Source: an uncultured Candidatus Rokubacteria bacterium
GTDB lineage: Bacteria; Methylomirabilota; Methylomirabilia; Rokubacteriales; DASRDR01
NCBI GenBank assembly: GCA_963826115.1
Contig: CAWGVS010000003.1
Coordinates: 1-64,000 of the forward strand
Reading direction: 5' to 3'
Length of the DNA stretch: 64,000 nucleotides
The position numbers and the translations under genes were made by a program. Positions 28,275-64,000 of this stretch are shown in pieces. The notes beneath the pieces are model-generated. The model was not told the DNA's origin. It searched no databases and saw only the letters and a list, made by a program, of their open reading frames with translations. Position 1 is the stretch's first letter; every line of letters starts with the position of its first letter.

Positions 28275-28549
28275 CGCGGGAATCGCCCCGATCGCACCCC
28301 CGCGTTCTCCGGCTGGTCGTGCCGCGGCGGCGGCGAGGTCAATGCCCGACATCCACTGCCCGCTGAGGCGCCCCCTGTCATCTCTGACAGTTGTGAGCAA
28401 CCCGGCCAGTTGACAGAGTGCCAGCGTCACGGTTCGCCAAAGCTCTACCCGTCTCCGAGCGGAGGCGGCGAGCCAGCGAGATTCGGGGCGAGCATCCACG
28501 GCATCAACCGAAGTGCCGGGCCCGGAGGCTCGGCGAAGAGGAGCGAGCG

Positions 28550-30139
28550 ATGCAGAGACGAAGTATCTGGCCCCGCGCGGTCGCCATGCTCGTCGCGGGC
28601 GCGCTGTGTGCGTCGCTCGCGCCGGCCGAGGCGCAGGCGCCGGCCAAGAAGCCAAACATCCTCGTCATCTGGGGTGACGACATCGGCCAGTCGAACCTGA
28701 GCGTCTTCACCAAAGGGCTGATGGGCTACCAGACGCCCAACATCGACCGCATCGCCAGCGAGGGGATGCTTTTCACGGACTACTACGCGGAGCAGAGCTG
28801 CACCGCGGGGCGGGCGGCGTTCATCATGGGGCAGAGCGTGTTCCGGTCCGGCCTGTCGAAGGTCGGGCTCCCCGGAGCCGCCAGCGGCATGCGCCCCGAG
28901 GATCCGACGATCGCCGAGCTTCTCAAGCCCCTCGGCTACGCCACCGGACAGTTCGGGAAGAACCATCTCGGCGACCGCGATGAGCCCCTGCCGACGATGC
29001 ACGGCTTCGACGAGTTCTTCGGCAACCTCTATCACCTGAACGCCGAGGAGGAGCCGGAGCTGCGCGACTACCCGTCCGAGAAGGACTTCCCGGGGTTCCG
29101 CCAGAAGTTCGGCCCGCGGGGCGTGCTCCACACCTGGGCGAATCCGGACGGCACGCAGCGGATCGACAACACGGGGCCGCTCACGAAGAAGCGGATGGAG
29201 ACCATCGACGACGAGACCCTCGCCGGGACCGTCGACTTCATCAAGCGCCAGCACGCAGCCGGCAAGCCGTTCTTCGTCTGGTTCAACACCACCGGCATGC
29301 ATTTCCGCACGCACGCCAAGCCCGCGAGCCTGGGTCAGTCCGGCCGGTGGCAGTCCGAGTACCACGACGCGATGATCGACCACGACAAGCGGGTCGGCGA
29401 GCTCCTGAAGCTGCTCGACGACCTCGGCATCGCCAACGACACCTTCGTCATGTACTCGACCGACAACGGCCCCCACCGGAACAGCTGGCCCGACGCCGGC
29501 ATGACCCCGTTCCGCAACGAGAAGAACTCGAACTGGGAGGGGGCCTACCGGGTGCCAGCCATGGTGCGCTGGCCGGGCCAGATCAAGCCCGGCTCGGTCT
29601 CCAACGAGATGGTGAGCCATCTGGACTGGCTGCCGACGTTTCTCGCCATGGCCGGGGACGCCGACATCAAGGACAAGCTCCTGAAGGGCCACCAGGCGGG
29701 GGCGAAGACGTTCAAGGTGCACCTGGACGGCTACAACCAGGTCCCGTACCTGACCGGCCAGCGGCCGGACAGCGCCCGCAAGGAGTTCTTCTACTTCTCG
29801 GACGACGGCGATCTGGTCGCGCTCCGGTATGACAACTGGAAAGCCGTGTTCGCCCAGCAGCGGGCCGAGGGGACGATGCTCGTGTGGAGCGAGCCGTTCG
29901 TGCGGACGCGGCTGCCGTGGCTCTTCAACCTGCGCACGGACCCCTACGAGCACGCCACCATCACGTCCAACACGTACTGGGATTGGTACTTCGACCACGT
30001 GTACCTGCTGGTGCCGATGCAGACCTACGTGGGGCAGTTCCTCCAGACCTTCAAGGAGTACCCGCCCCGACAGAAGGCGGCCAGCTTCACCGTCGACCAG
30101 GTCATGGAGAAGCTCACGGAGAGCCTCGGCTCGAAGTAG
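28550..30139 (+). CDS. arylsulfatase (Cys-type, secreted)
   Basis: KPNILVIWGDDIG, SCTAGRAAF, GYATGQFGKNHLG, STDNG, KNSNWEG; signal peptide. Confidence 0.95.
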   Translation: MQRRSIWPRAVAMLVAGALCASLAPAEAQAPAKKPNILVIWGDDIGQSNLSVFTKGLMGYQTPNIDRIASEGMLFTDYYAEQSCTAGRAAFIMGQSVFRSGLSKVGLPGAASGMRPEDPTIAELLKPLGYATGQFGKNHLGDRDEPLPTMHGFDEFFGNLYHLNAEEEPELRDYPSEKDFPGFRQKFGPRGVLHTWANPDGTQRIDNTGPLTKKRMETIDDETLAGTVDFIKRQHAAGKPFFVWFNTTGMHFRTHAKPASLGQSGRWQSEYHDAMIDHDKRVGELLKLLDDLGIANDTFVMYSTDNGPHRNSWPDAGMTPFRNEKNSNWEGAYRVPAMVRWPGQIKPGSVSNEMVSHLDWLPTFLAMAGDADIKDKLLKGHQAGAKTFKVHLDGYNQVPYLTGQRPDSARKEFFYFSDDGDLVALRYDNWKAVFAQQRAEGTMLVWSEPFVRTRLPWLFNLRTDPYEHATITSNTYWDWYFDHVYLLVPMQTYVGQFLQTFKEYPPRQKAASFTVDQVMEKLTESLGSK

Positions 30140-30384
30140 GCGGGAGGGTCGGGCGACGCGGTCCCCGGTGTGGTACGTGGGAGGCCGCGTCGCTCGAACC
30201 TGACCAGCCAACAGGGCCGTCGGACATCGGGCCGCCGCAGGGACACGCGCCGTGCCCTCGCACGCGATACGGAGCACGCGCGCCGGCGCCTCGGCGTCCC
30301 CGGCGACAGACCTGAAGTGCTTGTGCGATGCTCAACGAGCCCCCCCTGACGGGTTGGAAGGAACAGGTCACACCGAAGGATCAG

Positions 30385-30786
30385 TTACTTCCCTGGCCGA
30401 TCAAAGTACTGTCGAACCTTCGCCGCGATCTGCCGATCCGTCATCTTGTCGACCGTGTCAACCCTCACGATGCGTTGGCCGAGCCCCTCACGCTCAAGAT
30501 GGTGTTTGAGTTCTATCTTGGCCTCACCCGGGCCCAACAGGAGAATGGATTCGGCTTCACGAATCAGCGCTGTGACCGCAGCATAGTATTGTTCGAGATG
30601 GTTCGCGAACCGTCGGTCTCGGATGTCTTCAGCCGAGGCCGCCTGGGCGCCCCCGGAAAAGCGTACATGCTTCTCCATCTTCGAGGGAACGCGTTGGATC
30701 GCCTCGCCCACCTTTCCGGCCGCCACGATGACGGCCTGGCGGTGGTCAATCCACACACCCACTTCCTTCAGTACGTCCTTCTTCAT
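30385..30786 (-). CDS. eRF1-domain/host-attachment-like protein of unknown function
   Basis: VGVWIDHRQAVIV, ILLLGPGEAKIEL, DKMTDRQIAAKVRQYF; GGAGGA RBS. Confidence 0.75.
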   Translation of the reverse strand: MKKDVLKEVGVWIDHRQAVIVAAGKVGEAIQRVPSKMEKHVRFSGGAQAASAEDIRDRRFANHLEQYYAAVTALIREAESILLLGPGEAKIELKHHLEREGLGQRIVRVDTVDKMTDRQIAAKVRQYFDRPGK

Positions 30787-30987
30787 TGAGTCCTCCGTCG
30801 TCGTGGTCCCCGAATGGTGTCTGCATCAGCGCCCGCCTCCGGCAACCCCCTTGGAGACGTATCTGTTGGACAACAGGAGTGGTGGACTGCGTCGCCCATG
30901 CTGAGCCACTGGAGCTGCGGCGGCTTGTCGATGACGATGAGGTTGACGTTAGTCCCGGCTACGGAAGCAGTGATCGGCCACCATCCG

Positions 30988-31658
30988 TTAGAGCGATTTC
31001 AGTGCGTCGATCCGCTCTTGCGTGCCCGGATGGGTAGCGAGGAACCCTCCCCCACTGGCGCCCTCGGTCCGCAGGAGCCAGGTCAGCGTGTTGATCATGA
31101 CTTTTCTTTCGAAGACCCGGCACGCCGGAGGATATCCACGCCGTGGCGGTCCGCCTCGTATTCCTCCTGACGGCTATAGCCCCGGGTAATCAGGGCGCCG
31201 GCGACGGGTGTGATGCGGCCACTGCCCGGAAACATCTGGTCGAGAATAATCATGCCGATACCAACTCCGGCGCCGAGCGCTTGCGCCTTGGCGACATGGC
31301 CAAGATCGTCGTGGGCGAGATCATGGGCCAGCACCCCCCTGAGCTGGTCATCGTTGGCCTTCTGAAGCAGCCCGGTGGTGACATAGAACTCACCTCCGCC
31401 GGCGCTGGCCGCGTTGACGTGCGGATCATCCATGATCCCCACCCGGACCTGATTCAAGGGACGCGGATGATCCATGGCTCGGACGAGCGGGACCACGCTG
31501 CGCCGAAGGCGCTCGGCCTGCTGCGCATCGAGCGGACGAGATGCGGGCTGGGTCCCGCCCGTGTGGGTCGGTTCACGCGACGGCGCGCTTCCGACCCCGG
31601 CGCAACCTCCGGTCAGCACGCAGAGGAAGAGGGCGGCCAGGAATGATGTTCGCATCAT
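30988..31658 (-). pseudogene. M48 family metallopeptidase lipoprotein, frameshifted near 31100
   Basis: Lipobox, NAASAGGG, degenerate HDLAH, YSRQEEYEAD; C-terminus FLATHPGTQERIDALKSL* lies in another frame. Confidence 0.8.
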
Positions 31659-31803
31659 CTCCTTCAGGATTCGAACACGAGCTTGCCGATCAGCAGCGCG
31701 ACACCACGGCAGGCACACATGGTAGGCGCCCAGTTACTCACGGCGGACGGCCCAGCCGGCAGCAACCTCTCTCGATCGAGGCCAGGCTCGGCATGCCTTC
31801 CCC

Positions 31804-31947
31804 TCATAGTCGGCCCGATAGCGCCAAGACAATAAGAATGAGAACGACGAGACCGACGCCACCTCCCAAATACGGGCCGCCGTACCGCCAACCGCCAGGG
31901 ACACCGACAACAAGCAGCACGATCAGGATGATGAGGAGCAGATTCAT
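31804..31947 (-). CDS. small Gly-rich membrane protein (DUF3309-like, 47 aa)
   Basis: AGGAGG RBS; MNLLLIILIVLLVVGVPGGWRYGGPYLGGGVGLVVLILIVLALSGRL*. Confidence 0.75.
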   Translation of the reverse strand: MNLLLIILIVLLVVGVPGGWRYGGPYLGGGVGLVVLILIVLALSGRL

Positions 31948-32043
31948 GGCCTGGCCTCCTTATCGACAACATTCGGAGTTCCCGAACTCGCACTACTGTA
32001 CTAGTACGGTAATACAGGCAGGTATTCGCGTCAATGCCCTTCT

Positions 32044-32559
32044 GTGAAACGCTCCACATGCTCTCGGCGGCTACCCCCGTGCATTTCGTGGGCGACGTCC
32101 TCGACAGTCACAAGACGACGATCTCGCACATTGTCCCTGGGGTTAGCGGCCGGCGCCCTTGTCTCCTGTGCAACCTCCCCCTCCTCGCAACAGCCGGTAC
32201 AGTCGAGCAACCCGAGCGTGACCTACAACTACCGGACTGACCAGGAACTGCTTCAGGCCAACCAGAACGCGACGACGTTCTGCAGTCCGTATCAAACGAC
32301 CCCGCGTACCTCCAGCATCACGAGCAATGCAGACGGGAGCAAGGCCGTGCACTTCGAATGCGTGCGGACAACGCTGCCCGCGCCCGCCCCGACCCCTCCC
32401 AGCCAGACCTACAGCTATCGAACGGATCAGGAGTTGGTGCAAGCGTCTCAGACCGCGAGCGCCTCCTGCCCGAAGTCCAGCTCGCAGCCGATGACGTCGA
32501 GCATGGCGACCAATTCGGATGGAACCAAGACCGTGACGTTCCAATGTGGCCCGCGGTGA
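32044..32559 (+). CDS. lipoprotein with two tandem Cys-containing repeats (start uncertain)
   Basis: Lipobox LVSC; TY.YRTDQEL.QA...C...TSS....DG.K.V.F.C occurs twice, 186 bp apart. Confidence 0.7.
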   Translation: MKRSTCSRRLPPCISWATSSTVTRRRSRTLSLGLAAGALVSCATSPSSQQPVQSSNPSVTYNYRTDQELLQANQNATTFCSPYQTTPRTSSITSNADGSKAVHFECVRTTLPAPAPTPPSQTYSYRTDQELVQASQTASASCPKSSSQPMTSSMATNSDGTKTVTFQCGPR

Positions 32560-33032
32560 ACAGGCTCTGCGTCGCATCGACGATGTAGGCGAGAACAGGG
32601 ACTCACGGTTCACGTGCTTAACGACCACTCTGAGAGCCGCCGTGCAGTCCCTCTCTTGCTCGCGATCCCCCAAGAGGGATCGCCAAGCCCGCCTCGCATA
32701 GTGTGACGTGTCGTTGAAGAGCGTCAGGCGCGCGTGGGCATCGTCCCTGAAGTCGGGCTCTGGTCGAGGTGCTCCTGATCGAATCGCTGATCGAAGCCCG
32801 GGCGCGAACTCAGCAGTAAACGGGGCGTAACCCTGGCAGGAACACCCTGGGAGCGGCGGCGGACGCTGCAAACGCCTCCACCACGCCCGTCCCGAACGGT
32901 ACCACACGCACGCGCCGAGGCGAGACCGCCAGACGGCTAGTACAATCGGGACCTTTTCCCCGATCTCGCACGTTCAACCTCGATTGGAGCTCGGAAGGTT
33001 CCGGCCAATCTGCGCCCACCCGGGGCGCCACC

Positions 33033-33509
33033 CTACGACTTGCGCCCGCTCTTCCTCCGGCCGTGCTTCAGCTCGTGCCGAGTGGTCGCCTCGTCAACCG
33101 AATGAGACTGCATCAGATCGATGTCCCGCTTGGCCATCGCCGCGAGCTTCGCGTAGTGACGGTGGAGCACATCGAGCTCCGCCTCGGAGAGATCTTCGAC
33201 GTTGACCATTCGGTTGCTCGCCCCGTCGACTGCGGCCACGATCTCGTTCAGTTTGAGCTGGATGGCAAGCGAATCCTTGTTCTGGGATCGCTGGATAAGG
33301 AACACCATCAAAAAGGTCACGACGGTCGTCCCTGTGTTGATCACGAGCTGCCACGTGTCGGAGAAGTGAAACACCGGGCCAGTCATGCCCCACACCACGA
33401 TGGTCGCCAGCGCGAGACTGAAGCCCCTCGCGCTTCCCGTGAATCGCGTGATGGTGCGCGCCATGGCTTCCAAACGTCGTCCGAGGCCGCTGACTCCCGT
33501 TCCCGTCAT
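33033..33509 (-). CDS. low-affinity iron permease family (Fet4-like) protein
   Basis: FSDTWQLVINTGTTVVTFLMVFLIQRSQNKDSLAIQLKLNE. Confidence 0.88.
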   Translation of the reverse strand: MTGTGVSGLGRRLEAMARTITRFTGSARGFSLALATIVVWGMTGPVFHFSDTWQLVINTGTTVVTFLMVFLIQRSQNKDSLAIQLKLNEIVAAVDGASNRMVNVEDLSEAELDVLHRHYAKLAAMAKRDIDLMQSHSVDEATTRHELKHGRRKSGRKS

Positions 33510-33991
33510 CGTCCGTGCCTCCACCCGGCGAGGCTAGCATGGCGGCTGGACCGTCGCTCAGTGCTAGGCATGAGCCGGAAGCTTGTCGTCGCCGGAAACG
33601 CTTGCTTGATCGGCCACCCACGACTCGCTCGAGCTCGGCGAGCACCTCGCCCTCCGGCCGGCAATGAAAACGCACGACCCGGATCCCCGAGTCCTGGTGA
33701 GCGTGATGCGCAACGTCGGTGCTCACTGCTCCGACTACGGCCCGGACCGCGGCGTGACACCATGCGCTAGGATGCCCCTGGGCAGGGAACGAGCATGCAG
33801 CGCATCCACACGCCCCGGTCGACGCCGGCGGGTCGCCAGAGAGATCCCCTGAGGACACCGATACCGGACGTGTTGGACGTGTGCTCTAGGCGGCCGGGGA
33901 TGAGTGGCCCTTCCAGCTTCGCTGAATGCCCGGCGAGGCATCCGGCAGTCGCATCGGGGGCTACGGCGTGGGCCGTAACCCCCGATGGCGT

Positions 33992-34066
33992 TGGAGCGGG
34001 CGACCGGAATCGAACCGGCGACGTCCAGCTTGGGAAGCTGGCATTCTGCCGCTGAATTACGCCCGC
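33992..34066 (-). tRNA. tRNA-Gly(CCC)
   Basis: GCGGGCG acceptor stem, anticodon arm CCAGC-TTCCCAA-GCTGG, GGTTCGATTCC T-arm, encoded CCA. Confidence 0.97.
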
Positions 34067-54532: not shown

Positions 54533-55555
54533 TCAGAACCAGCGACGCTTGTCGACGACCGTGGCGAGAGACTCGCCCCGCGCGAAGCGGCGAACGTTGT
54601 CCAGGAGGACCGCCAGGTGGCGCTCGGCGATCCTCGGTGAGTTGCCGGCGACGTGCGGCGTCAGGATCACGTTCGGCATCCGCCAGAGCGGGTGGTCCGA
54701 CGGCAGGGGCTCAGTCTCGTACACGTCGAGCCCGGCGCCGCCGAGCTCGGCGGCCCGGAGGGCGGCGACCAGGTCGCCCAGGTCCACGATCGCCCCGCGC
54801 CCGATGTTGATCAGGTAGGCGCTCGGCTTCATCTGGCGGAACTGCGCCCGCCGGAACATCTTCGCCGTCTCGGGGGTGTGGGGCGCGGCGATCACGACGA
54901 AGTCGCTCTCCCCGAGGAGGTCCGGCAGCCGGTCCAGGCGCCAGAGCGCCGCGATCCCGGTCGGCGCCGTCGCCTGCACCGGGTCCACCGCGAGGACCCG
55001 CATCCCGAACGCCAGACCGCGCCGCGCGATCTCGGAGCCGATCTGACCCAGGCCCACCACGCCGAGGGTGGAGTCCGCGAGGTGGAGGTGCGAGCGGTCG
55101 ACGGCGCTGACATGCGCGGGGCCCGTGACGAACCCTGACCGCTCCAGCGTGTCGCCCGCGCTCTCCGGCTTGCCGCCGACCGGCGCCCACCGGGCGTCCA
55201 GCTGGTTGCGGATGTAGTGGTGGAAGTTGCGCGCGAAGCAGAGGACGTAACCGAACACGTGGTCCGCGATGACGTCCGAGTAGAGCCCCCGCATGTTGGT
55301 GAGGGCGCACGGGTGCTCCACGAGCGCGGGGAACATGTAGTGCTCGAGGCTGGCCGTCGGCGCCTGCACCCAGCGGAGCCGCCGGGCCGCGCCGAGGAGA
55401 TCGGGAGTGATCTTGCCGTAGAAGGCGTCGGCGTCGCCGAGCGCGGCGCGGGCCTCCGCCTCGTTCGCGGCGTTGACGACGGTCATGGGACGGGCGGCCT
55501 CGACGATCTTCGCGAGGCGCTCGGGCTCGACGGGCGGATAGAGGACGAGCTTCAC
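54533..55555 (-). CDS. D-2-hydroxyacid dehydrogenase
   Basis: VVGLGQIG, APHTPET, INIGRG, LDVYETEPL, LTPHVAG; GTG start overlaps the ATP-grasp stop. Confidence 0.92.
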   Translation of the reverse strand: MKLVLYPPVEPERLAKIVEAARPMTVVNAANEAEARAALGDADAFYGKITPDLLGAARRLRWVQAPTASLEHYMFPALVEHPCALTNMRGLYSDVIADHVFGYVLCFARNFHHYIRNQLDARWAPVGGKPESAGDTLERSGFVTGPAHVSAVDRSHLHLADSTLGVVGLGQIGSEIARRGLAFGMRVLAVDPVQATAPTGIAALWRLDRLPDLLGESDFVVIAAPHTPETAKMFRRAQFRQMKPSAYLINIGRGAIVDLGDLVAALRAAELGGAGLDVYETEPLPSDHPLWRMPNVILTPHVAGNSPRIAERHLAVLLDNVRRFARGESLATVVDKRRWF

Positions 55556-56844
55556 GCGCAGGGCTCCTTGGTGTCGGCGGTGTCCGGGGTCGTGGTCGTG
55601 CCCGCCGCGCCGGCCGGGCCGATGTCGAAGTCGAGGCGCTCGTGGGCGGCCCGCAGGGCGCCCTCCACCGCCTCGGGGGAGTCCGCCCGGGCGAGGATGA
55701 AGCCGAGGTAGCGCGAGCCTTCGGGGAGCGGGACCAGCTCCTGGCCGACGTGCGCGCTGATCGTGACGTCCTCGATCCCCGGCACGGCGAGGGCCGCGTC
55801 CCGGCCGCCAGCGGCCCGCAGCACGCCGCCGCGGGGGATCGGGATCATCATCACCCCGGCCGGCTGACGCTCGCGCTCGAGCGAGTCCAGCTCGATGCCG
55901 AGCGCGTGGCGGATGACCAGCTCCTCCAGCGACACGCCCGCGCCGAACCGGAGCGTGCGCGAGCAAAGCCCGCCGATCGTGCGAGCGGCGACCTCGACCA
56001 CCCACGGCCCGCGCTCGTTGACGCGGAGCTCCGCATGCACCGGCCCCTCGGTGAGTCCGAGCGCCCGGGCGGCCCAGCGCGTCTCGGCGGTGATCGCCAC
56101 CTGGACGTCGGCCGGGAGGCGCGAGGGCGTCACGTAGATCGTCTCCTCGAAGTACGGACCGTCGAGCGGATCCGGCTTGTCGAAGAGCGCGAGGACGTGG
56201 AGCTCCTCGCCGATCAGGAGGCCCTCGAGCGCGACTTCCTTCCCCGGCACGAACTCCTCGACCAGGATCTCCGTGGCGCCCTCGCCGAGACCCGGCGTGT
56301 CGAGCGAGGCGAGGATGGCCGCGATCCGTCGGAACGCGACCACGAAGGCCGCCGGATCGTCCGCCCGGATCACCCCGCGGCTCCCGGCGAGAATCGTGGG
56401 CTTCAGGACGACCGGGTAGGCCGCGCGGCCGGCGGCGTCCTCCGGGTCGTCCGACACCTCGAGAAGCGTGAAGCGGGGCGACCGCACACCGGACCTCGCG
56501 AAGGCCTCGCGCATCCGGTGCTTGTTCCGCGTGGTCGAGACGGCGCCCAGCGGGCTCGAGCGGAGGCCGAGGCGCTCGGCGATCGCGGCGCCGACGACGG
56601 TCGTCCGGTCGTCCACGGGCACCACCGCGTCGATGCGATGCCGCCGGCTGAACTCCGCCACCGTCCGCGCCGCCTTCTGGGGATCATCGAAGTCGAGCGT
56701 GACGAGGTTGTCCGGCAGCGCCGCCTCGAGGACGTTCGGGCGCTCGGACGCCACCACCATCTCGACGTCGAGCTTCGCGGCCGCGGCGACGAAGTCCTCG
56801 GTCCGGTAGGTCGTGGTCGGGATCAGGAGGAGGAGGCGGAGCAC
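55552..56844 (-). CDS. ATP-grasp ligase
   Basis: NKHRMR, PVVLKP..GSRGVIRAD, EEFVPG.E, HAELR, EVAAR.IGG. Confidence 0.9.
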   Translation of the reverse strand: MLRLLLLIPTTTYRTEDFVAAAAKLDVEMVVASERPNVLEAALPDNLVTLDFDDPQKAARTVAEFSRRHRIDAVVPVDDRTTVVGAAIAERLGLRSSPLGAVSTTRNKHRMREAFARSGVRSPRFTLLEVSDDPEDAAGRAAYPVVLKPTILAGSRGVIRADDPAAFVVAFRRIAAILASLDTPGLGEGATEILVEEFVPGKEVALEGLLIGEELHVLALFDKPDPLDGPYFEETIYVTPSRLPADVQVAITAETRWAARALGLTEGPVHAELRVNERGPWVVEVAARTIGGLCSRTLRFGAGVSLEELVIRHALGIELDSLERERQPAGVMMIPIPRGGVLRAAGGRDAALAVPGIEDVTISAHVGQELVPLPEGSRYLGFILARADSPEAVEGALRAAHERLDFDIGPAGAAGTTTTPDTADTKEPCA

Positions 56845-56914: not shown

Positions 56915-57205
56915 TCAGGCCTTCGACGGGGCGTAGTAGGGGTTCGAGCCGGAGGCGTGGTCCGTGGTGTCCAGGACCTCGGTGACCTCCGGGATCTCCT
57001 CGAAGATCATCCGCTCGATGCCGGCCTTCAGCGTCACGTCCGCCGCCCCGCAGCCCTGACAGCCGCCCGACATCCGGATGTAGACGGTCGACTCCTTGAC
57101 GTCGATCAGCTCGATGTAGCCACCGTGGCCGGAGACCGCGGGGTTGATCGCGGTGTCGAGCAGCTCCTGCACCTTGTCCTTGAGCCCCACACCTTCGTCC
57201 GCCAT
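56915..57205 (-). CDS. nfuA: NfuA/NifU C-terminal Fe-S carrier domain protein
   Basis: INPAVSGHGG, SGGCQGCG, TLKAGIE, DTTDHASGSNPYY. Confidence 0.88.
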   Translation of the reverse strand: MADEGVGLKDKVQELLDTAINPAVSGHGGYIELIDVKESTVYIRMSGGCQGCGAADVTLKAGIERMIFEEIPEVTEVLDTTDHASGSNPYYAPSKA

Positions 57206-57293
57206 CGCTTCCCTCCCTCGTGAGCGCGCCCCCTTCGGTGACGGGCGGGCCGCCTGACGTCATTCTACCCCAGGCCTCCGGCGCCCGTCTCCG

Positions 57294-58742
57294 TCAGAGC
57301 GCGCTTCCGACCGGCCGTCCGCGGAGGGCCAACTGGCCCTCGGTGGGCTCCGCTCAGCAGAACCAGGGCTCCGTGAGGTGCGGCGGGCGCGCCCGGTCCG
57401 GCCGGCGGAGCGCGTCGGCCAGCGGGCGGTGCGGCCGACCGGCGGTCGCGGCGGCAAGCGCCCGCACCCGGTCGAACGTCTCCGCCTCGTCGGCGTGCGT
57501 CTCGGCCGCCGCCTCCACCACCCGGGCCACGTCGGCCTGCAGGGCGTCCATCCGCGGGTCGGGATGGCGCCAGGCGTGGGAGAACGCGTCCTCCACGAGC
57601 GGCCCGAGGTGCGCTCGCATGCCCGGGTGGCGGGCGAGGAGGGATCCCGGAGGCACCAGGAGGCGCAGCGAGTACTGCACGGGATCCACCGCGTCCAGCA
57701 GGCTCTCCGCCTCCACGAAGTCGAGCATCGCCAGGTAGTCGTCGAGCGTCGTCCAGGGGGTGAACGCTACCCAGGTCGGGCGGAGCGGGAGCCCGGCCGT
57801 GCGCATGAGCCCGACCAGCTCGACCACGTCGGCGCCCGTGTGGCCCTTGTCGAGGTGGCCGAGCACGATATCGCTGAGCGACTCCACCGCCGAGACGACG
57901 AAGGCGCAGCCGAGGTCGCGGAGCTCCGGCAGCATGGCGCGGTGTCGCAGGAGGTGCTCGACCTTCGCGGTGACGTCGAAGGACAGGTGGGGGTGCGCCG
58001 CGTGGATCGCCCGGGCCACGGCCAGCGCGTGCCGGGGGCCGTTTAGGAAGTCGGGGTCCCCGATCGTCACGTGGGTGGCGCCCGCCTCGACGCACTGGCC
58101 GACGTCCGCCAGGACGACGTCCGGCGGCACGACGAAGAAGCGCCCGCCGTACACGGGCGGGATCGGGCAGTGGCGGCACAGGTGCTTGCACCCGCGGCTC
58201 GCCTCGACGTAGCCGACCAGCTCGTGGCGTCCGGCGCGCTCGAGCCGCGCGTACTGCTTGAGCGAGGGCAGCGCCGCGCGGCTCGGCCGCGGGAAGCGGA
58301 GGCGCGCGAGATTCGGGGCCGCCGGACGCGCGACCGTCCCGACGCCCTCCGGCGGGCTCCCGTCCGACTCGAGGGACTCGGCGAGCGCGACGAGCGGCGC
58401 CTCCGCCTCGCCCCCGATCACCGAATCGACGCCGTGGGCGTGGAGGTATTCGGCGTTCAGGTGGGCGTAGAGACCGTAGGCCGCCACGTGACACGTCGGA
58501 TTCACGGCCCGGACGCGGGCGATCAGCGCGCCGCCGACCCGCAGCGCGGTGTGCATCGGCACGGACACCGCCACCAGACGCGCGCGCGCCGCCTTGTCCG
58601 GATCGAACGGCTCGACGGACACGTCCATGACCGCCGGCGCGAAGCCGCGCGCCTCCAGGAACGCCGCGGCCCACGCGACGCCGAGGGGCTGGTGGCCGAG
58701 CTCGTAGCACGAGACCAGGAGGATCGCGCCGGGCTCCCGCAT
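57294..58742 (-). CDS. B12-binding radical SAM protein with predicted selenocysteine C-U-A-E-P tail (UGA at 57354-57356 read as Sec)
   Basis: SRGCKHLCRHCP motif; N-terminal cobalamin-type domain; TEPWFC-UGA-AEPTEGQLALRGRPVGSAL* in frame; hairpin directly after the UGA. Confidence 0.85.
57321..57353 (-). other. bacterial SECIS-like hairpin
   Basis: After UGA: GCGGAGCCCACC, then GAGGGCC-AGUU-GGCCCUC stem-loop; flanks GCG..CGC can extend the pairing. Confidence 0.75.
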
Positions 58743-58860: not shown

Positions 58861-59487
58861 ATGTCGAGCCCCGGCGATCCCGGCCCGATCCTGCGCGACG
58901 AGATGCTCCCCGCCCGTGGGCGGACGGCCTTCGCCGTCGAGCGCGGCCAGACGGTCCGCGTGATCGACGTGGACGGGCAGCAGGTCGCCGACTTCGTGTG
59001 CTTCCGGCGCCCGGACACGGCCGAGAAGCTCTCCGTCCACAACACGGCTCTCATCCAGGGGACGATCCACATCACGACCGGGCATCTCCTCCTGTCCGAC
59101 CGGTGCGGCACGCTCATGACGATCACCGCCGACACGTGCGGGCTGCACGACCTCCTGGCGGGCTCCTGCAGCGAGGGCACGAACCGCTGGCGCTACGGGG
59201 TGGCGAATACTCCCAACTGCCGGTCCAACTTCGAGGCGGCCCTCCGGCCCTTCGGGATCCCGCTCACGGAGGTGCCCTACAGCTTCAACATCTTCATGAA
59301 CGTGCCGATCGCCGATGGGAAGATCGGGATCCAGGCGCCCGTCTCCAAGGCGGGAGACTACGTGGACCTCCGGGCGGAGACGGACCTCCTCGTCGCGATC
59401 TCGAACTGCCCCCAGGAGCGCAACCCGTGCAACGCCTACACGCCGACGCGTCTCCGCGCAGTCGTATTTGGAGCGTCTCCGACGTGA
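58861..59487 (+). CDS. DUF1989/urea carboxylase-associated family protein
   Basis: GQQVADF, HDLLAGSC, NCRSNF, FNIFMNVP, ISNCPQ..NPCN; GGAGG RBS. Confidence 0.9.
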   Translation: MSSPGDPGPILRDEMLPARGRTAFAVERGQTVRVIDVDGQQVADFVCFRRPDTAEKLSVHNTALIQGTIHITTGHLLLSDRCGTLMTITADTCGLHDLLAGSCSEGTNRWRYGVANTPNCRSNFEAALRPFGIPLTEVPYSFNIFMNVPIADGKIGIQAPVSKAGDYVDLRAETDLLVAISNCPQERNPCNAYTPTRLRAVVFGASPT

Positions 59488-60955: not shown

Positions 60956-63900
60956 CTAGGGCGAGCGCGTCTCCAGCCCGCGGGGGGAGGCCGGCCCGCC
61001 CAGGCCGTCGCCCGCGGCCGCGCCGTTCGGTCCGACGGCCGTCGTGTGCGCGGCGGTCCCGTGGCCGACGATGGTCGCCGGGGACAGAGCCCCGTCGCCG
61101 CCGGCCGGCTCGGCCGCCGCGCCGGCAACGCGGGGCCGGCGCCGCCACCTGAGGAACCGCACCAGGTCGTGGAGCAGGAGGTACGCGACCGGGGTCACCA
61201 GGAGCGTCAGCAGGAGCGAGAGTGTCTGCCCCCCGATCACGACGACCGCGATCGCGCGGCGCTCCTCCGATCCGGGTCCCGTGCCGACCCAGAGCGGCAG
61301 CATGCCGCCCACCAGCGCGAGGGTCGTCATCAGGATCGGCCGCAAGCGGTCCCGGTTCCCCTGCAGGATGGCGGTGCGGAGGTCGTGCCCCTCCTGACGG
61401 AGGGCATTCATGTGGTCGATCTGCAGGATCGCGTTCTTCTTGACCACGCCGAACAGCACGAGGATGCCGAGCGCGGAGTAGAGGTTCAGCGTGTTCCCCG
61501 TGTACCAGAGCGAGAACAGGGCGAACGGCACCGCGAGGGGCAGGGACAGGAGGATGTTCAGCGGGTGGACCAGGCTCTCGAACTGTGACGCCAGGATCAT
61601 GTACATGAAGATCACGGCCAGGAGGAACACCCACAGGAACTCGACGACGGTCTTCTCGAACTCGCGGGCCCGCCCCGACACCGACGTCGTGTAGCCGGCA
61701 GGCAGGTTCATCGCGAGCGTCGCCTGCTTGAGCGCGTCCATCCGGTCGGCCTGGCCGTAGCCGGGCGCGATGACGCCGCGGAGCCGGTTCTCCCGCTGGC
61801 GCTCCGACCGGTCGATGCGCGAAGCTGTCTCGGTCCGCGTGATCTTGACCAGGTTGTCCAGCCGGACGAGCCCGCCGCCGGGCGCCATGCCGACCTGGGG
61901 CGCCGCGCCGAGCGCGGTCGCAGAGCCCGCGGAGCTGCGCGAGACGTAGAGCCGCGAGATCGTGGCCGGGTCGCCCCGGTCCTTCGCGCTCAGGCGGAGC
62001 TGGACGTCGTAGTCCTGGTCCAGCAAGGGGTCGTGAAAGCGCGAGACCTCCTGGTCCCCGCCGACCATCAGACGGAGGGCGGAGGCGATCTGCTCGACGT
62101 CGACCCGAAGGTCGGCCGCCCGCTCCCGATCCACCTGCACCCGGAGCTCGGGGCGGTCAAGGCGTAGCGTCGTCGTGAGATCGAGCATGCCGCCTATCTG
62201 GACCGCGCGCTGCCGGAGCTGCTCGCCGAGGGTGCTCAGCGTCGCGAGCTCCGGCCCGCGGAGAACGTAGTCGATATCGAAGTTGCCGCCGCCGATGTTG
62301 AAACCCGGGATGTTCCGGATGGTGATCCGGACGTCGCGGAACTTGCGGACGCGCTGCCGGACCTCCTGCATCACCTCGCGCTGCGTGTAGTTGTCGCGGA
62401 AGGCCGCCCCGGGATCGCCGCGCTTGAGCCCCTCCCAGAGCCGGCTCAGCGTGACGGTGCGCTCGGCATGCGGCGCGATCCGCACGTACCCGCCGCCCTG
62501 GTTGACCCGGCCGAGGAAGTTGCTCCCGGCGGTCAGCAGGACCAGCCGGATACCCCGGACGGCCCGGATCTCGCGGTCCATCGCCTGCACCACCTCGTCC
62601 ATGGCGGCGAGGCTCATGCCCTCGGGACCCTCGTAGAAGACCTCGAACTCGGCCTCGTCCACGTCCGTCGGCACGTACTCGCGCTTCACCCAGCCGAAGA
62701 GCGGGACGGACGAGGCGATCACCGCGAGCGCGAGGAGCACCACCACCACGCGCCCGGCCGGGTGGATCGCGAGGCGAAGGAGCCACCCGTAGGTCGCCTC
62801 GATGTGACGGTAGAAGCCGCGCCGCGACCGCGCCGCGTCGTGCTCGCCGCCGGCGTCCTCGGCGCGGAGCATCCGCGCGCTCATCATCGGCGTCAGGGTG
62901 AACGAGACCAGGAGGCTCACGAGCACCGAGACCGCCGCGGTGAGACCGAACTGGTAGAGGAAGCGGCCCGAGACCGACGACATGAAGGACACCGGGACGA
63001 AGATGACCACGAGCGAGAGCGTCGTGGCCATGACCGCGAGGCCGATGTCGGCGGTGGCCGCGCGGGCCGCCTCGAACGGCCCCATCCGCTTCTCCTCGAC
63101 GAAGCGGAAGATGTTCTCCAGCACCACGATCGCGTCGTCGATCACGATGCCGACCATCAGCACCAGCGCCAGCATGGTGACGCTGTTCAGCGTGAAGCCG
63201 AGCGCCGCCATCATGCCGAACGCCGAGATGACCGAGGCGGGGATCGCCACCGCGGCGATGATGGTGGAGCGCCAACTGCGCATGAACGCGAACACCACCA
63301 GCGAGGCCAGGATGCTCCCGAGCACCAGGTGGAGGTTGATCTCGTGGAGCCCGGCGTAGATGTACCGGGACTGGTCGCGGATGATGTCCAGCTTGATGTC
63401 GCTGGGGAGCGTCGGCGCGAGGCGCTGCAGGTTCCCCTTGACGGCCTCGATCACGGCCACGGTGTTGGTGCCCGACTGCCGCCGGACGTCGAGGATGACC
63501 GTCGGGACGCCGTTCACGCGCACGGCCGAGCGCTGCTCCTTCGTGCCGTCCTCGGCGCGGCCGATGTCCCGCACCCGCACCGGCGCCCCGTTGATCGTGG
63601 CCACCACGAGATCGTTGAACGACCGGGGATCGACGACCCGGCCCATGGTCCGGAGCGACTGCTCCCGGGACCCGGACGTCACGTTGCCGCCGGGAAGGTC
63701 GGCGTTCTGGCGGGTGATGGCGTCGCGGACGGCGGTGATCGGGATCTGGTAGGCGGCCAGCCGGTCCGCCTCGACCCAGATGTTCACCGCGCGCAGGAGG
63801 CCGCCGACCAGCCGCACCTCGCCGACGCCCAGCGCGCGCTCCAGGTCGACCTTCACCGTCTTGTCGGCGATCTCGGTCAGCTCCCGGAGGCTCCGGTTCC

Positions 63901-64000
63901 CCGAAACGGCCAGCGTCATGACCGGCGCCTGGTCGTTGTCGAGCTTGGAGACCGTGGGCGGCAGGATGTCGTCGGGGAGGTTCCGGACCGCGTTCGCCAC
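60956..64000 (-). CDS. RND efflux permease (AcrB/AcrD/AcrF family), 5' end outside window
   Basis: GIVIDDAIVVLENI, LTPMM, GVVKKNAILQID, RLRPILMTT. Confidence 0.95.
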   Translation of the reverse strand: MANAVRNLPDDILPPTVSKLDNDQAPVMTLAVSGNRSLRELTEIADKTVKVDLERALGVGEVRLVGGLLRAVNIWVEADRLAAYQIPITAVRDAITRQNADLPGGNVTSGSREQSLRTMGRVVDPRSFNDLVVATINGAPVRVRDIGRAEDGTKEQRSAVRVNGVPTVILDVRRQSGTNTVAVIEAVKGNLQRLAPTLPSDIKLDIIRDQSRYIYAGLHEINLHLVLGSILASLVVFAFMRSWRSTIIAAVAIPASVISAFGMMAALGFTLNSVTMLALVLMVGIVIDDAIVVLENIFRFVEEKRMGPFEAARAATADIGLAVMATTLSLVVIFVPVSFMSSVSGRFLYQFGLTAAVSVLVSLLVSFTLTPMMSARMLRAEDAGGEHDAARSRRGFYRHIEATYGWLLRLAIHPAGRVVVVLLALAVIASSVPLFGWVKREYVPTDVDEAEFEVFYEGPEGMSLAAMDEVVQAMDREIRAVRGIRLVLLTAGSNFLGRVNQGGGYVRIAPHAERTVTLSRLWEGLKRGDPGAAFRDNYTQREVMQEVRQRVRKFRDVRITIRNIPGFNIGGGNFDIDYVLRGPELATLSTLGEQLRQRAVQIGGMLDLTTTLRLDRPELRVQVDRERAADLRVDVEQIASALRLMVGGDQEVSRFHDPLLDQDYDVQLRLSAKDRGDPATISRLYVSRSSAGSATALGAAPQVGMAPGGGLVRLDNLVKITRTETASRIDRSERQRENRLRGVIAPGYGQADRMDALKQATLAMNLPAGYTTSVSGRAREFEKTVVEFLWVFLLAVIFMYMILASQFESLVHPLNILLSLPLAVPFALFSLWYTGNTLNLYSALGILVLFGVVKKNAILQIDHMNALRQEGHDLRTAILQGNRDRLRPILMTTLALVGGMLPLWVGTGPGSEERRAIAVVVIGGQTLSLLLTLLVTPVAYLLLHDLVRFLRWRRRPRVAGAAAEPAGGDGALSPATIVGHGTAAHTTAVGPNGAAAGDGLGGPASPRGLETRSP

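Follow-up and report, generated by a model that had tools for sequence, protein, structure and literature searches.

A predicted selenoprotein of the CUAEP/CCAEP-tail radical SAM family in an uncultured Candidatus Rokubacteria bacterium

We have found that a 64,000-nt stretch of DNA from an uncultured Candidatus Rokubacteria bacterium (positions 1 to 64,000 of contig CAWGVS010000003.1, assembly GCA_963826115.1; hereafter the window) almost certainly encodes, at 57294..58742 on the minus strand, a 482-residue radical S-adenosylmethionine (SAM) selenoprotein of the NCBIfam family NF040546. As read from the sequence, the protein combines an N-terminal Rossmann (B12-binding-like) domain, a CX3CX2C core and the C-terminal motif L-T-E-P-W-F-C-U-A-E-P-T, in which U is selenocysteine (Sec); the corresponding UGA would be recoded through the organism's own SelA, SelB, tRNA-Sec and SelD, together with a hairpin located 12 nt downstream. 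The window gene is one more member of an uncharacterised family to which NCBI's annotation pipeline has already given a name; the finding is therefore not new in itself and leaves existing knowledge of the family unchanged.

The open reading frame (ORF) 58742..57354 on the minus strand comprises 462 codons and a stop, and its product terminates in ...RPPHLTEPWFC ahead of a TGA at 57356..57354. When this TGA is read as U, the frame extends by 19 codons (57353..57297; peptide AEPTEGQLALRGRPVGSAL) up to a second TGA at 57296..57294, which is the true stop. The complete coding sequence thus occupies 57294..58742 and specifies 482 residues (462, Sec463 and the 19 that follow), starting at an ATG at 58742 with an AGGAGG 4 nt on its 5' side. 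The in-frame UGA (57354..57356), assigned as Sec463 on the basis of codon conservation and of Cys homologues, lies next to the invariant Cys462. In the tail behind it (57297..57353), AEPT..Q is conserved as protein, and the remainder overlies the hairpin. The original prediction, made from the letters of the window, had placed a hidden selenoprotein at 57294-58742, which is exactly the extended coding sequence including its stop, and its description of the gene was exact.

Against NF040546, the equivalog model named "CUAEP/CCAEP-tail radical SAM (seleno)protein" (cut-off 500), the read-through protein scores 671.5 bits, with residues 7-472 aligned to positions 1-467 of the 468 in the profile. 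This is a gain of 20 bits over the 651.4 bits of the UGA-truncated ORF; a genome-wide profile search recovered the same family at 665.2 bits with one TGA inside the match. At the domain level, Pfam recognises a B12-binding domain (PF02310) at residues 9-120, weakly (36.7 bits for a cut-off of 32.1), and a Radical_SAM domain (PF04055) at residues 180-319 (44.1 bits). Family alignments of 33 and 83 members show no variation in the CX3CX2C motif (C185/C189/C192) or in Cys462, and the tail ...TEPWFC-U-AEPT aligns with the CCAEP of Cys forms, so that the C-terminal family motif is present. The protein has the domain order of NF040546, the same W-F-C-U-A-E-P-T and Sec at the position which is Sec or Cys in the family, and we see no structural difference from it. 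The family had been named in the original prediction; it is real, bears that exact name and is also mentioned in a bioRxiv preprint (10.1101/2022.07.06.499078), which terms it uncharacterised. This was the one relevant paper naming the family that we found in the open literature, subscription-only papers and bioRxiv supplements lying outside the search.

Evidence for selenocysteine insertion

The source genome (12 contigs, 6.24 Mb, 72% G+C) encodes the complete Sec machinery, the presence of selA, selB, selC and selD having been proposed at the outset as a check; all four were found above the model cut-offs. The selA and selB genes are adjacent (C8:81424-84706; 576.5 and 347.8 bits), and a tRNA-Sec gene lies near them (C8:85946-86039; 76.9 bits), called by ARAGORN as tRNA-SeC with anticodon tca. 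The selD gene (C5:561687-562604, locus L011; 393.2 bits) is itself interrupted in frame by a TGA, at the classic ...SHGAG-U-ACKLG position.

The single TGA is a regular feature of related genes. Within the same order, 55 of 61 genomes exceed the NF040546 cut-off and each listed match reaching the end of the profile contains exactly one TGA; the same pattern holds for the 142 of 201 genomes above the cut-off in a sample of the phylum, among which no Cys form was seen (both tallies take in the unpublished genomes G038, G055, G119 and G163, and the picture is unchanged without them). WFC-TGA-AEPTxGQ is found in 31 of 31 loci from related genomes. When 89 distinct TGA contexts from many phyla are considered, the first position after the UGA is Ala in 86 (GCG 70, GCA 12, GCC 4), the second is Glu in all 89 (GAG 72, GAA 17) and the third is Pro in all 89, written with all four synonymous codons (CCC 40, CCG 28, CCT 15, CCA 6); Thr follows at the fourth position in 79 contexts, again with four codons, and Gln at the seventh in 86. 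Since these amino acids are constant across synonymous codons, the stretch behind the UGA is translated, and the AEPT..Q motif is also present in Cys forms.

Such Cys forms had been expected for some members of the family, and they were found. Of the best 150 cluster representatives (clusters at 50% identity), 42 have CCxEP, 40 end in W-F/Y-C and have presumably been cut by gene callers at the UGA, 3 are of the RCCxxC type seen in ArsL and 65 are fragments or other variants. A set of 80 loci from other phyla contains 57 with TGA at this position and 19 with TGC or TGT, the last 4 being cut by contig ends.

A hairpin of the selenocysteine insertion sequence (SECIS) type, GAGGGCC-AGUU-GGCCCUC (7 bp, 4-nt loop; 57324..57341, minus strand), begins 12 nt after the UGA. 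Two results weigh against it: single-sequence folding of 76 nt around the UGA gave a z of -0.52 versus shuffles, with no unusual stability, a calculation which is uninformative because any stretch of a 72% G+C genome folds well; and a permissive Rfam search of 57000-57600 returned no SECIS family, its one match being a chance-level hit to an unrelated long non-coding RNA model. The evidence for a SECIS is thus comparative only. At the level of the class, 37 of 47 loci were analysed (L032, L034, L036, L052, L054 and L059-L063 were left out as repeats of kept rows), and pairs were counted by script from the loop outwards, the ungapped MAFFT alignment of 48-nt windows being unable to register 4-nt against 5-nt loops. 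All 37 sequences keep a hairpin of 6-8 bp located 11-14 nt after the UGA, with compensatory changes: the outer pair is G:C in 14, C:G in 11, A:U in 1 and G:U in 3, and GGAGC/GCUCC replaces GGGCC/GGCCC in one family of the class. In hairpins with a 5-nt loop the pairing is retained while the peptide differs (GQLAL becoming GQFGPL or EEQVAPF). Across phyla, a stem of at least 5 bp occurs at the same place in 55 of 57 distinct UGA contexts versus 1 of the 20 contexts that lack UGA (19 with a Cys codon, plus a stray TAA pattern match), mononucleotide shuffles reaching 5 bp in 18.6% of trials. The loop reads A-G-U-U, A-G-U-U-C/G/A or G-U-U in 46 of these 55 hairpins. The only non-UGA context with such a stem is the Cys form (TGT) of Thermogemmatispora carboxidivorans PM5 (L130:6001-7503), which still has a SECIS-like hairpin (8 bp, loop agttc); this probably reflects a recent switch from Sec to Cys.

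These features are reminiscent of the SelB-binding bacterial SECIS, for instance that of Escherichia coli fdhF: the hairpin lies within the coding sequence, 11-14 nt after the UGA, has a G-U-containing apical loop, and accompanies the UGA forms, Cys forms having lost it. The fdhF element differs from the A-G-U-U(C) loop consensus and the short perfect stem of the present family. The selD gene of the window genome has an 8-bp hairpin of its own (GGGCCAGA-gga-UCUGGCCC) at the same spacing, 12 nt after its UGA.

That the UGA is a true stop, the protein ending at Cys462 and the downstream conservation being due to an RNA element or to chance, is extremely improbable: all 120 database proteins listed, which are products of gene callers, do end near residue 462-463, and the hairpin might conceivably act as terminator or attenuator, but the amino acids behind the UGA are conserved through synonymous codons, AEPT..Q continues in homologues with a Cys codon, the family profile runs through the tail with its gain of 20 bits, the genome has a complete Sec machinery and no run of U follows the hairpin on its 3' side. 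Taken with the hairpin conservation and the Cys homologues, these observations uphold the hidden selenoprotein of the original prediction. Of the three findings which it had named as speaking against itself, none holds: Sec machinery is present, homologues do not end at WFC with UAA or UAG, and AEP is conserved.

Predicted structure and gene neighbourhood

AlphaFold2, supplied with an alignment of 83 sequences, models the radical SAM protein with a mean predicted local distance difference test (pLDDT) of 96 and a predicted template modelling score of 0.93. By blocks of ten residues, the mean pLDDT falls from 94 (451-460) through 83 (461-470) to 60 (471-480), and residues 478-482 are below 50. 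The motif around C-U is thus predicted to be ordered and only the last dozen residues loose; the flexible C-terminal arm that had been envisaged does not appear in the model, where residues 451-470 adopt an ordered conformation. A Foldseek search of the PDB ranks AprD4 first (E 7e-19, template modelling score 0.66-0.70), followed by the methyl-coenzyme M reductase (MCR) glutamine methylase, OxsB, TsrM, MiaB, CysS, TokK and RimO, which are general class B-like neighbours only. AprD4 is also the best sequence match among solved structures (E 4e-7). Sequence and fold searches of the PDB found no solved structure of ArsL or of a member of the CUAEP family.

The next gene downstream (56915..57205, minus strand) encodes a 96-residue NifU-like Fe-S carrier with the Nfu C-terminal domain (PF01106, 88.6 bits) and a CQGC motif, the CxxC of which is invariant across its alignment. 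It is followed by a 430-residue ATP-grasp protein of the L-amino-acid ligase (LAL) type (55552..56844, minus strand; Pfam ATP-grasp_4, LAL_C2 and ATPgrasp_N). Among solved relatives, the L-amino acid ligase BL00235 (3VOT; E 1.8e-41) comes first and BacD (E 2e-20) second; with these ligases it shares the LAL_C2 domain, and it is a predicted ligase itself. We know of no characterised ligase of the LAL type that is paired with a radical SAM selenoprotein. A D-isomer-specific 2-hydroxyacid dehydrogenase (54533..55525, minus strand; PF02826, 179 bits) begins 27 nt after the stop of the ATP-grasp gene and probably shares a transcript with it in the window. This dehydrogenase was considered as a member of the conserved module and rejected, since none of 96 other loci has it next to the radical SAM gene. 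On the other strand, divergent and upstream of the radical SAM gene, lies a DUF1989 protein (58861-59487) whose best NCBIfam match, the urea amidolyase-associated protein family, reaches 182.6 of the 284.7 bits that its cut-off demands, and which is conserved at this place within the same genus only; an alpha/beta hydrolase gene is also found upstream on that strand.

The association of the radical SAM gene with the carrier and the ligase extends well beyond the window. In 30 related loci with 1.5-kb flanks, the order radical SAM, NifU, ATP-grasp is found in 19, and NifU only in 3 more. Another family of the class has the order PntB, ATP-grasp, NfuA, radical SAM (L067, L068, L073). When 96 loci with larger flanks are considered (16 from the phylum and 80 from other phyla, many of them cut by contig ends), 41 have a NifU-domain gene and 45 an ATP-grasp gene, 34 having both and 52 at least one of the two. 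Radical SAM, Nfu and LAL-type ATP-grasp genes are thus grouped, in varying order, both in different families within the class and in other phyla. Co-occurrence in the 201 genomes of the phylum sample (ATP-grasp at E <= 1e-50, radical SAM at E <= 1e-60) points in the same direction: 141 have both radical SAM and ligase, 7 the radical SAM gene alone, 16 the ligase alone and 37 neither, this last group including several genomes that are 99-100% complete. Other neighbours include YggX, a protein of Fe2+ trafficking, which adjoins the radical SAM gene in L130 and L137, IscU and IscA in L114, and a major facilitator superfamily transporter in L059, L060 and L071.

Some further observations on these loci can be mentioned. 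A DUF169 (PF02596) gene lies near the radical SAM gene in L066, L088, L094, L099, L121 and L124 and recurs between the radical SAM and ATP-grasp genes. Its hosts are Nitrospirota, Planctomycetota, Vicinamibacterales and one family of Methylomirabilota; in L099 the gene is split into two ORFs, and the window's cluster has none. A literature search on DUF169 found only two passing mentions, in the gene table of a comparative-genomics study of selenium metabolism and beside the hgcA-like genes of Nitrospina; these are weak hints, of which we made no use. In L067 (4351-7340), the radical SAM gene is followed by transglutaminase-like, TusA-domain, DsrE-like and OsmC-like genes, a sulfur-relay-looking arrangement seen in this locus only.

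Elsewhere in the window, a stretch of about 5.5 kb (28500-34066) has a G+C content of 0.60-0.68, versus 0.72-0.78 on both sides, and ends at a tRNA-Gly(CCC) gene (33992-34066, minus strand); it may be an island inserted at this tRNA gene. A second tRNA-Gly(GCC), called by ARAGORN at 61072-61158 and unreported by Rfam at the gathering threshold, lies inside the ORF of a resistance-nodulation-division-type transporter (60956..64000) and is probably a false call.

Relationship to ArsL and possible chemistry

The second-best family for the window protein is ArsL (NF040542, RCCLKC-tail radical SAM), which is matched over residues 7-407 and profile positions 1-409 at 297.6 bits, short of its cut-off of 450. 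Identity to three RCCxKC-tail proteins is 32-35% along the entire body of the protein, and MAFFT puts their Cys-Cys pair on C462-U463. [quoted passage not shown] More precisely, the three Cys of the tail bind As(III) (10.64898/2026.04.29.721666), and turnover was obtained in vitro with SAM and dithionite alone (10.1101/2024.02.01.577332). Among the matches listed by our searches, no relevant paper linked ArsL with selenocysteine, and nothing relevant was found in the open literature on radical SAM, selenoprotein and 3-amino-3-carboxypropyl together.

The window protein resembles this enzyme of arsinothricin biosynthesis in its N-terminal domain, its CX3CX2C core and the vicinal pair near the C-terminus, where Cys-Cys aligns with C-U. 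It differs in its tail, C-U-A-E-P-T with two ligands and Sec, whereas ArsL has R-C-C-L-K-C with three Cys; in some 60 extra residues before the tail in the window's family; and in genetic context, which is arsM/arsQ (arsQML) for ArsL and Nfu with an L-amino-acid ligase here.

By analogy with ArsL, the nearest relative to have been characterised, we tentatively favour, at somewhat less than an even chance, a transfer whose acceptor atom would sit on the Cys-Sec pair, followed by ligation of the product. In such a scheme the [4Fe-4S] cluster would reductively cleave SAM, and a carbon radical, probably 3-amino-3-carboxypropyl, would join a soft atom on the vicinal Cys462-Sec463, which would occupy the place of Cys-Cys in the RCCLKC tail of ArsL. 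Candidates for the held atom are Se, S and two-coordinate metal(loid)s (e.g. an organoarsenical, Hg or Sb). The product, a 2-amino-4-X-butanoate, would pass to the co-inherited ATP-grasp of the L-amino-acid ligase type and give a dipeptide-type compound, while the neighbouring Nfu would load or repair the Fe-S cluster. On the same analogy, the original prediction's idea of a C-U arm that would carry a substrate or metal(loid) is reasonable. A bolder version, which we regard as rather unlikely, is that the Cys-Sec tail offers Se, S or a soft metal(loid) to an ArsL-type ACP radical and so forms a carbon-chalcogen or carbon-metalloid bond by a route unlike that of any characterised enzyme, the ligase coupling the new amino acid into a dipeptide-like metabolite.

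Several points weigh against this ArsL-like transfer. The ArsL score is below the cut-off of that model, and the alignments of 33 and 83 members contain no third invariant Cys, leaving C462 and U463 as the only ligands. No ars gene or methyltransferase was found among the neighbours scanned at the window and 36 other loci, the rest of the genome not having been searched for ars genes. The family is called uncharacterised in 10.1101/2022.07.06.499078. Apart from the ligase, the recurring neighbours all handle Fe-S clusters or iron (Nfu, NfuA, IscU with IscA, YggX), and an enzyme that consumes a cluster fits them at least equally well. The presence of the family in about 70% of the whole phylum looks more like core metabolism than like an antibiotic pathway, and the co-occurrence with the ligase is an indication rather than a statistic, because the genomes are related and many are incomplete metagenome-assembled genomes. 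It is because of the two ligands instead of three, the lack of ars genes nearby and neighbours so strongly concerned with Fe-S handling that we keep our preference for the ArsL-like transfer tentative.

The alternative that survives best, though we consider it unlikely, is an insertion of S or Se of the LipA/BioB/MiaB type, in which the Cys-Sec tail, by itself or jointly with Nfu's CxxC, would hold an auxiliary Fe-S(e) cluster or a persulfide/perselenide that is consumed as the chalcogen donor and rebuilt by the dedicated Nfu at each turnover. NfuA is known to restore the sacrificial cluster of LipA, and the neighbours found most constantly beside genes of the present family encode proteins that carry Fe-S clusters or handle iron (Nfu or NfuA in many loci, IscU and IscA in L114, YggX in L130 and L137); TusA- and DsrE-type sulfur-relay proteins follow the gene in L067, and MiaB and RimO are among the structural neighbours. 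However, many radical SAM genes adjoin Fe-S carriers merely because a cluster is needed, and the TusA and DsrE neighbours are confined to a single locus. Auxiliary clusters usually need three or four ligands, of which only two (C462 and U463) are conserved here, and the kinship in sequence is to ArsL and not to the methylthiotransferases, a MiaB-like model reaching 21 bits.

Still less probable is a cobalamin-dependent class B radical SAM methyltransferase whose Cys-Sec arm carries the substrate atom or relays the methyl group, close to what the original prediction had proposed. The Pfam B12-binding match (36.7 bits for a cut-off of 32.1) and structural neighbours such as OxsB, TsrM, TokK, CysS and the MCR glutamine methylase are compatible with it. 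The top structural match, however, is AprD4, which has the same domain and is not known to use cobalamin, and models of class B methyltransferases, at 27-43 bits, fall far short of their cut-offs. The N-terminal domain is shared in full with ArsL, which is reported to work in vitro with SAM and dithionite only. With so weak a B12-binding match and this precedent, the cobalamin or methyl role is unsupported.

A redox arm, in which Cys-Sec would cycle between selenenylsulfide and selenolthiol and supply the active site with electrons or a hydrogen atom instead of holding the substrate, appears slightly more improbable again. A vicinal Cys-Sec near the C-terminus is the arrangement of mammalian thioredoxin reductase (Gly-Cys-Sec-Gly), and interchange of Sec and Cys is typical of redox sites. 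Against this, the motif lies 19 residues from the end in the window protein and from 11 to more than 30 in its relatives, the flanking W-F and A-E-P-T are conserved equally with the Cys-Sec pair, the region is ordered in the AlphaFold2 model, and the aligned Cys-Cys of ArsL binds substrate.

Distribution and biological meaning

The nearest database proteins are labelled Candidatus Rokubacteria or Methylomirabilota, and the family is found in about 70% of the phylum sample. A scan of species-representative genomes revealed at least 597 family loci, the best 80 of which were examined. Their record titles name Rokubacteria, Acidobacteriota (Blastocatellia, Vicinamibacterales), Planctomycetota, Nitrospirota (Nitrospira, Manganitrophus), Nitrospinae, Gemmatimonadales, Chloroflexota (Thermogemmatispora, Ktedonobacterales, Thermomicrobiales), Poribacteria, Tectomicrobia, Myxococcota, SAR324 and Bacteroidetes, although a few of the bin labels among these titles look unreliable. 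Since all of the 120 database proteins listed stop at the UGA or only a few residues away from it, gene calls lose the very residues that define the family, and its diagnostic tail is dropped from existing annotation.

The radical SAM selenoprotein of the window thus belongs to a large family linked with an amino-acid ligase and Fe-S carriers; the chemistry of that family is the interesting part. The family is kin to ArsL, the sole canonical radical SAM enzyme known for an ACP radical. The Cys form in the cultured Thermogemmatispora carboxidivorans PM5 (L130) places the question within experimental reach. If a novel bond is indeed formed on the Cys-Sec tail, the family would represent an unrecognised selenium-dependent pathway spread over at least 10 bacterial phyla and near-universal in Methylomirabilota/Rokubacteria.

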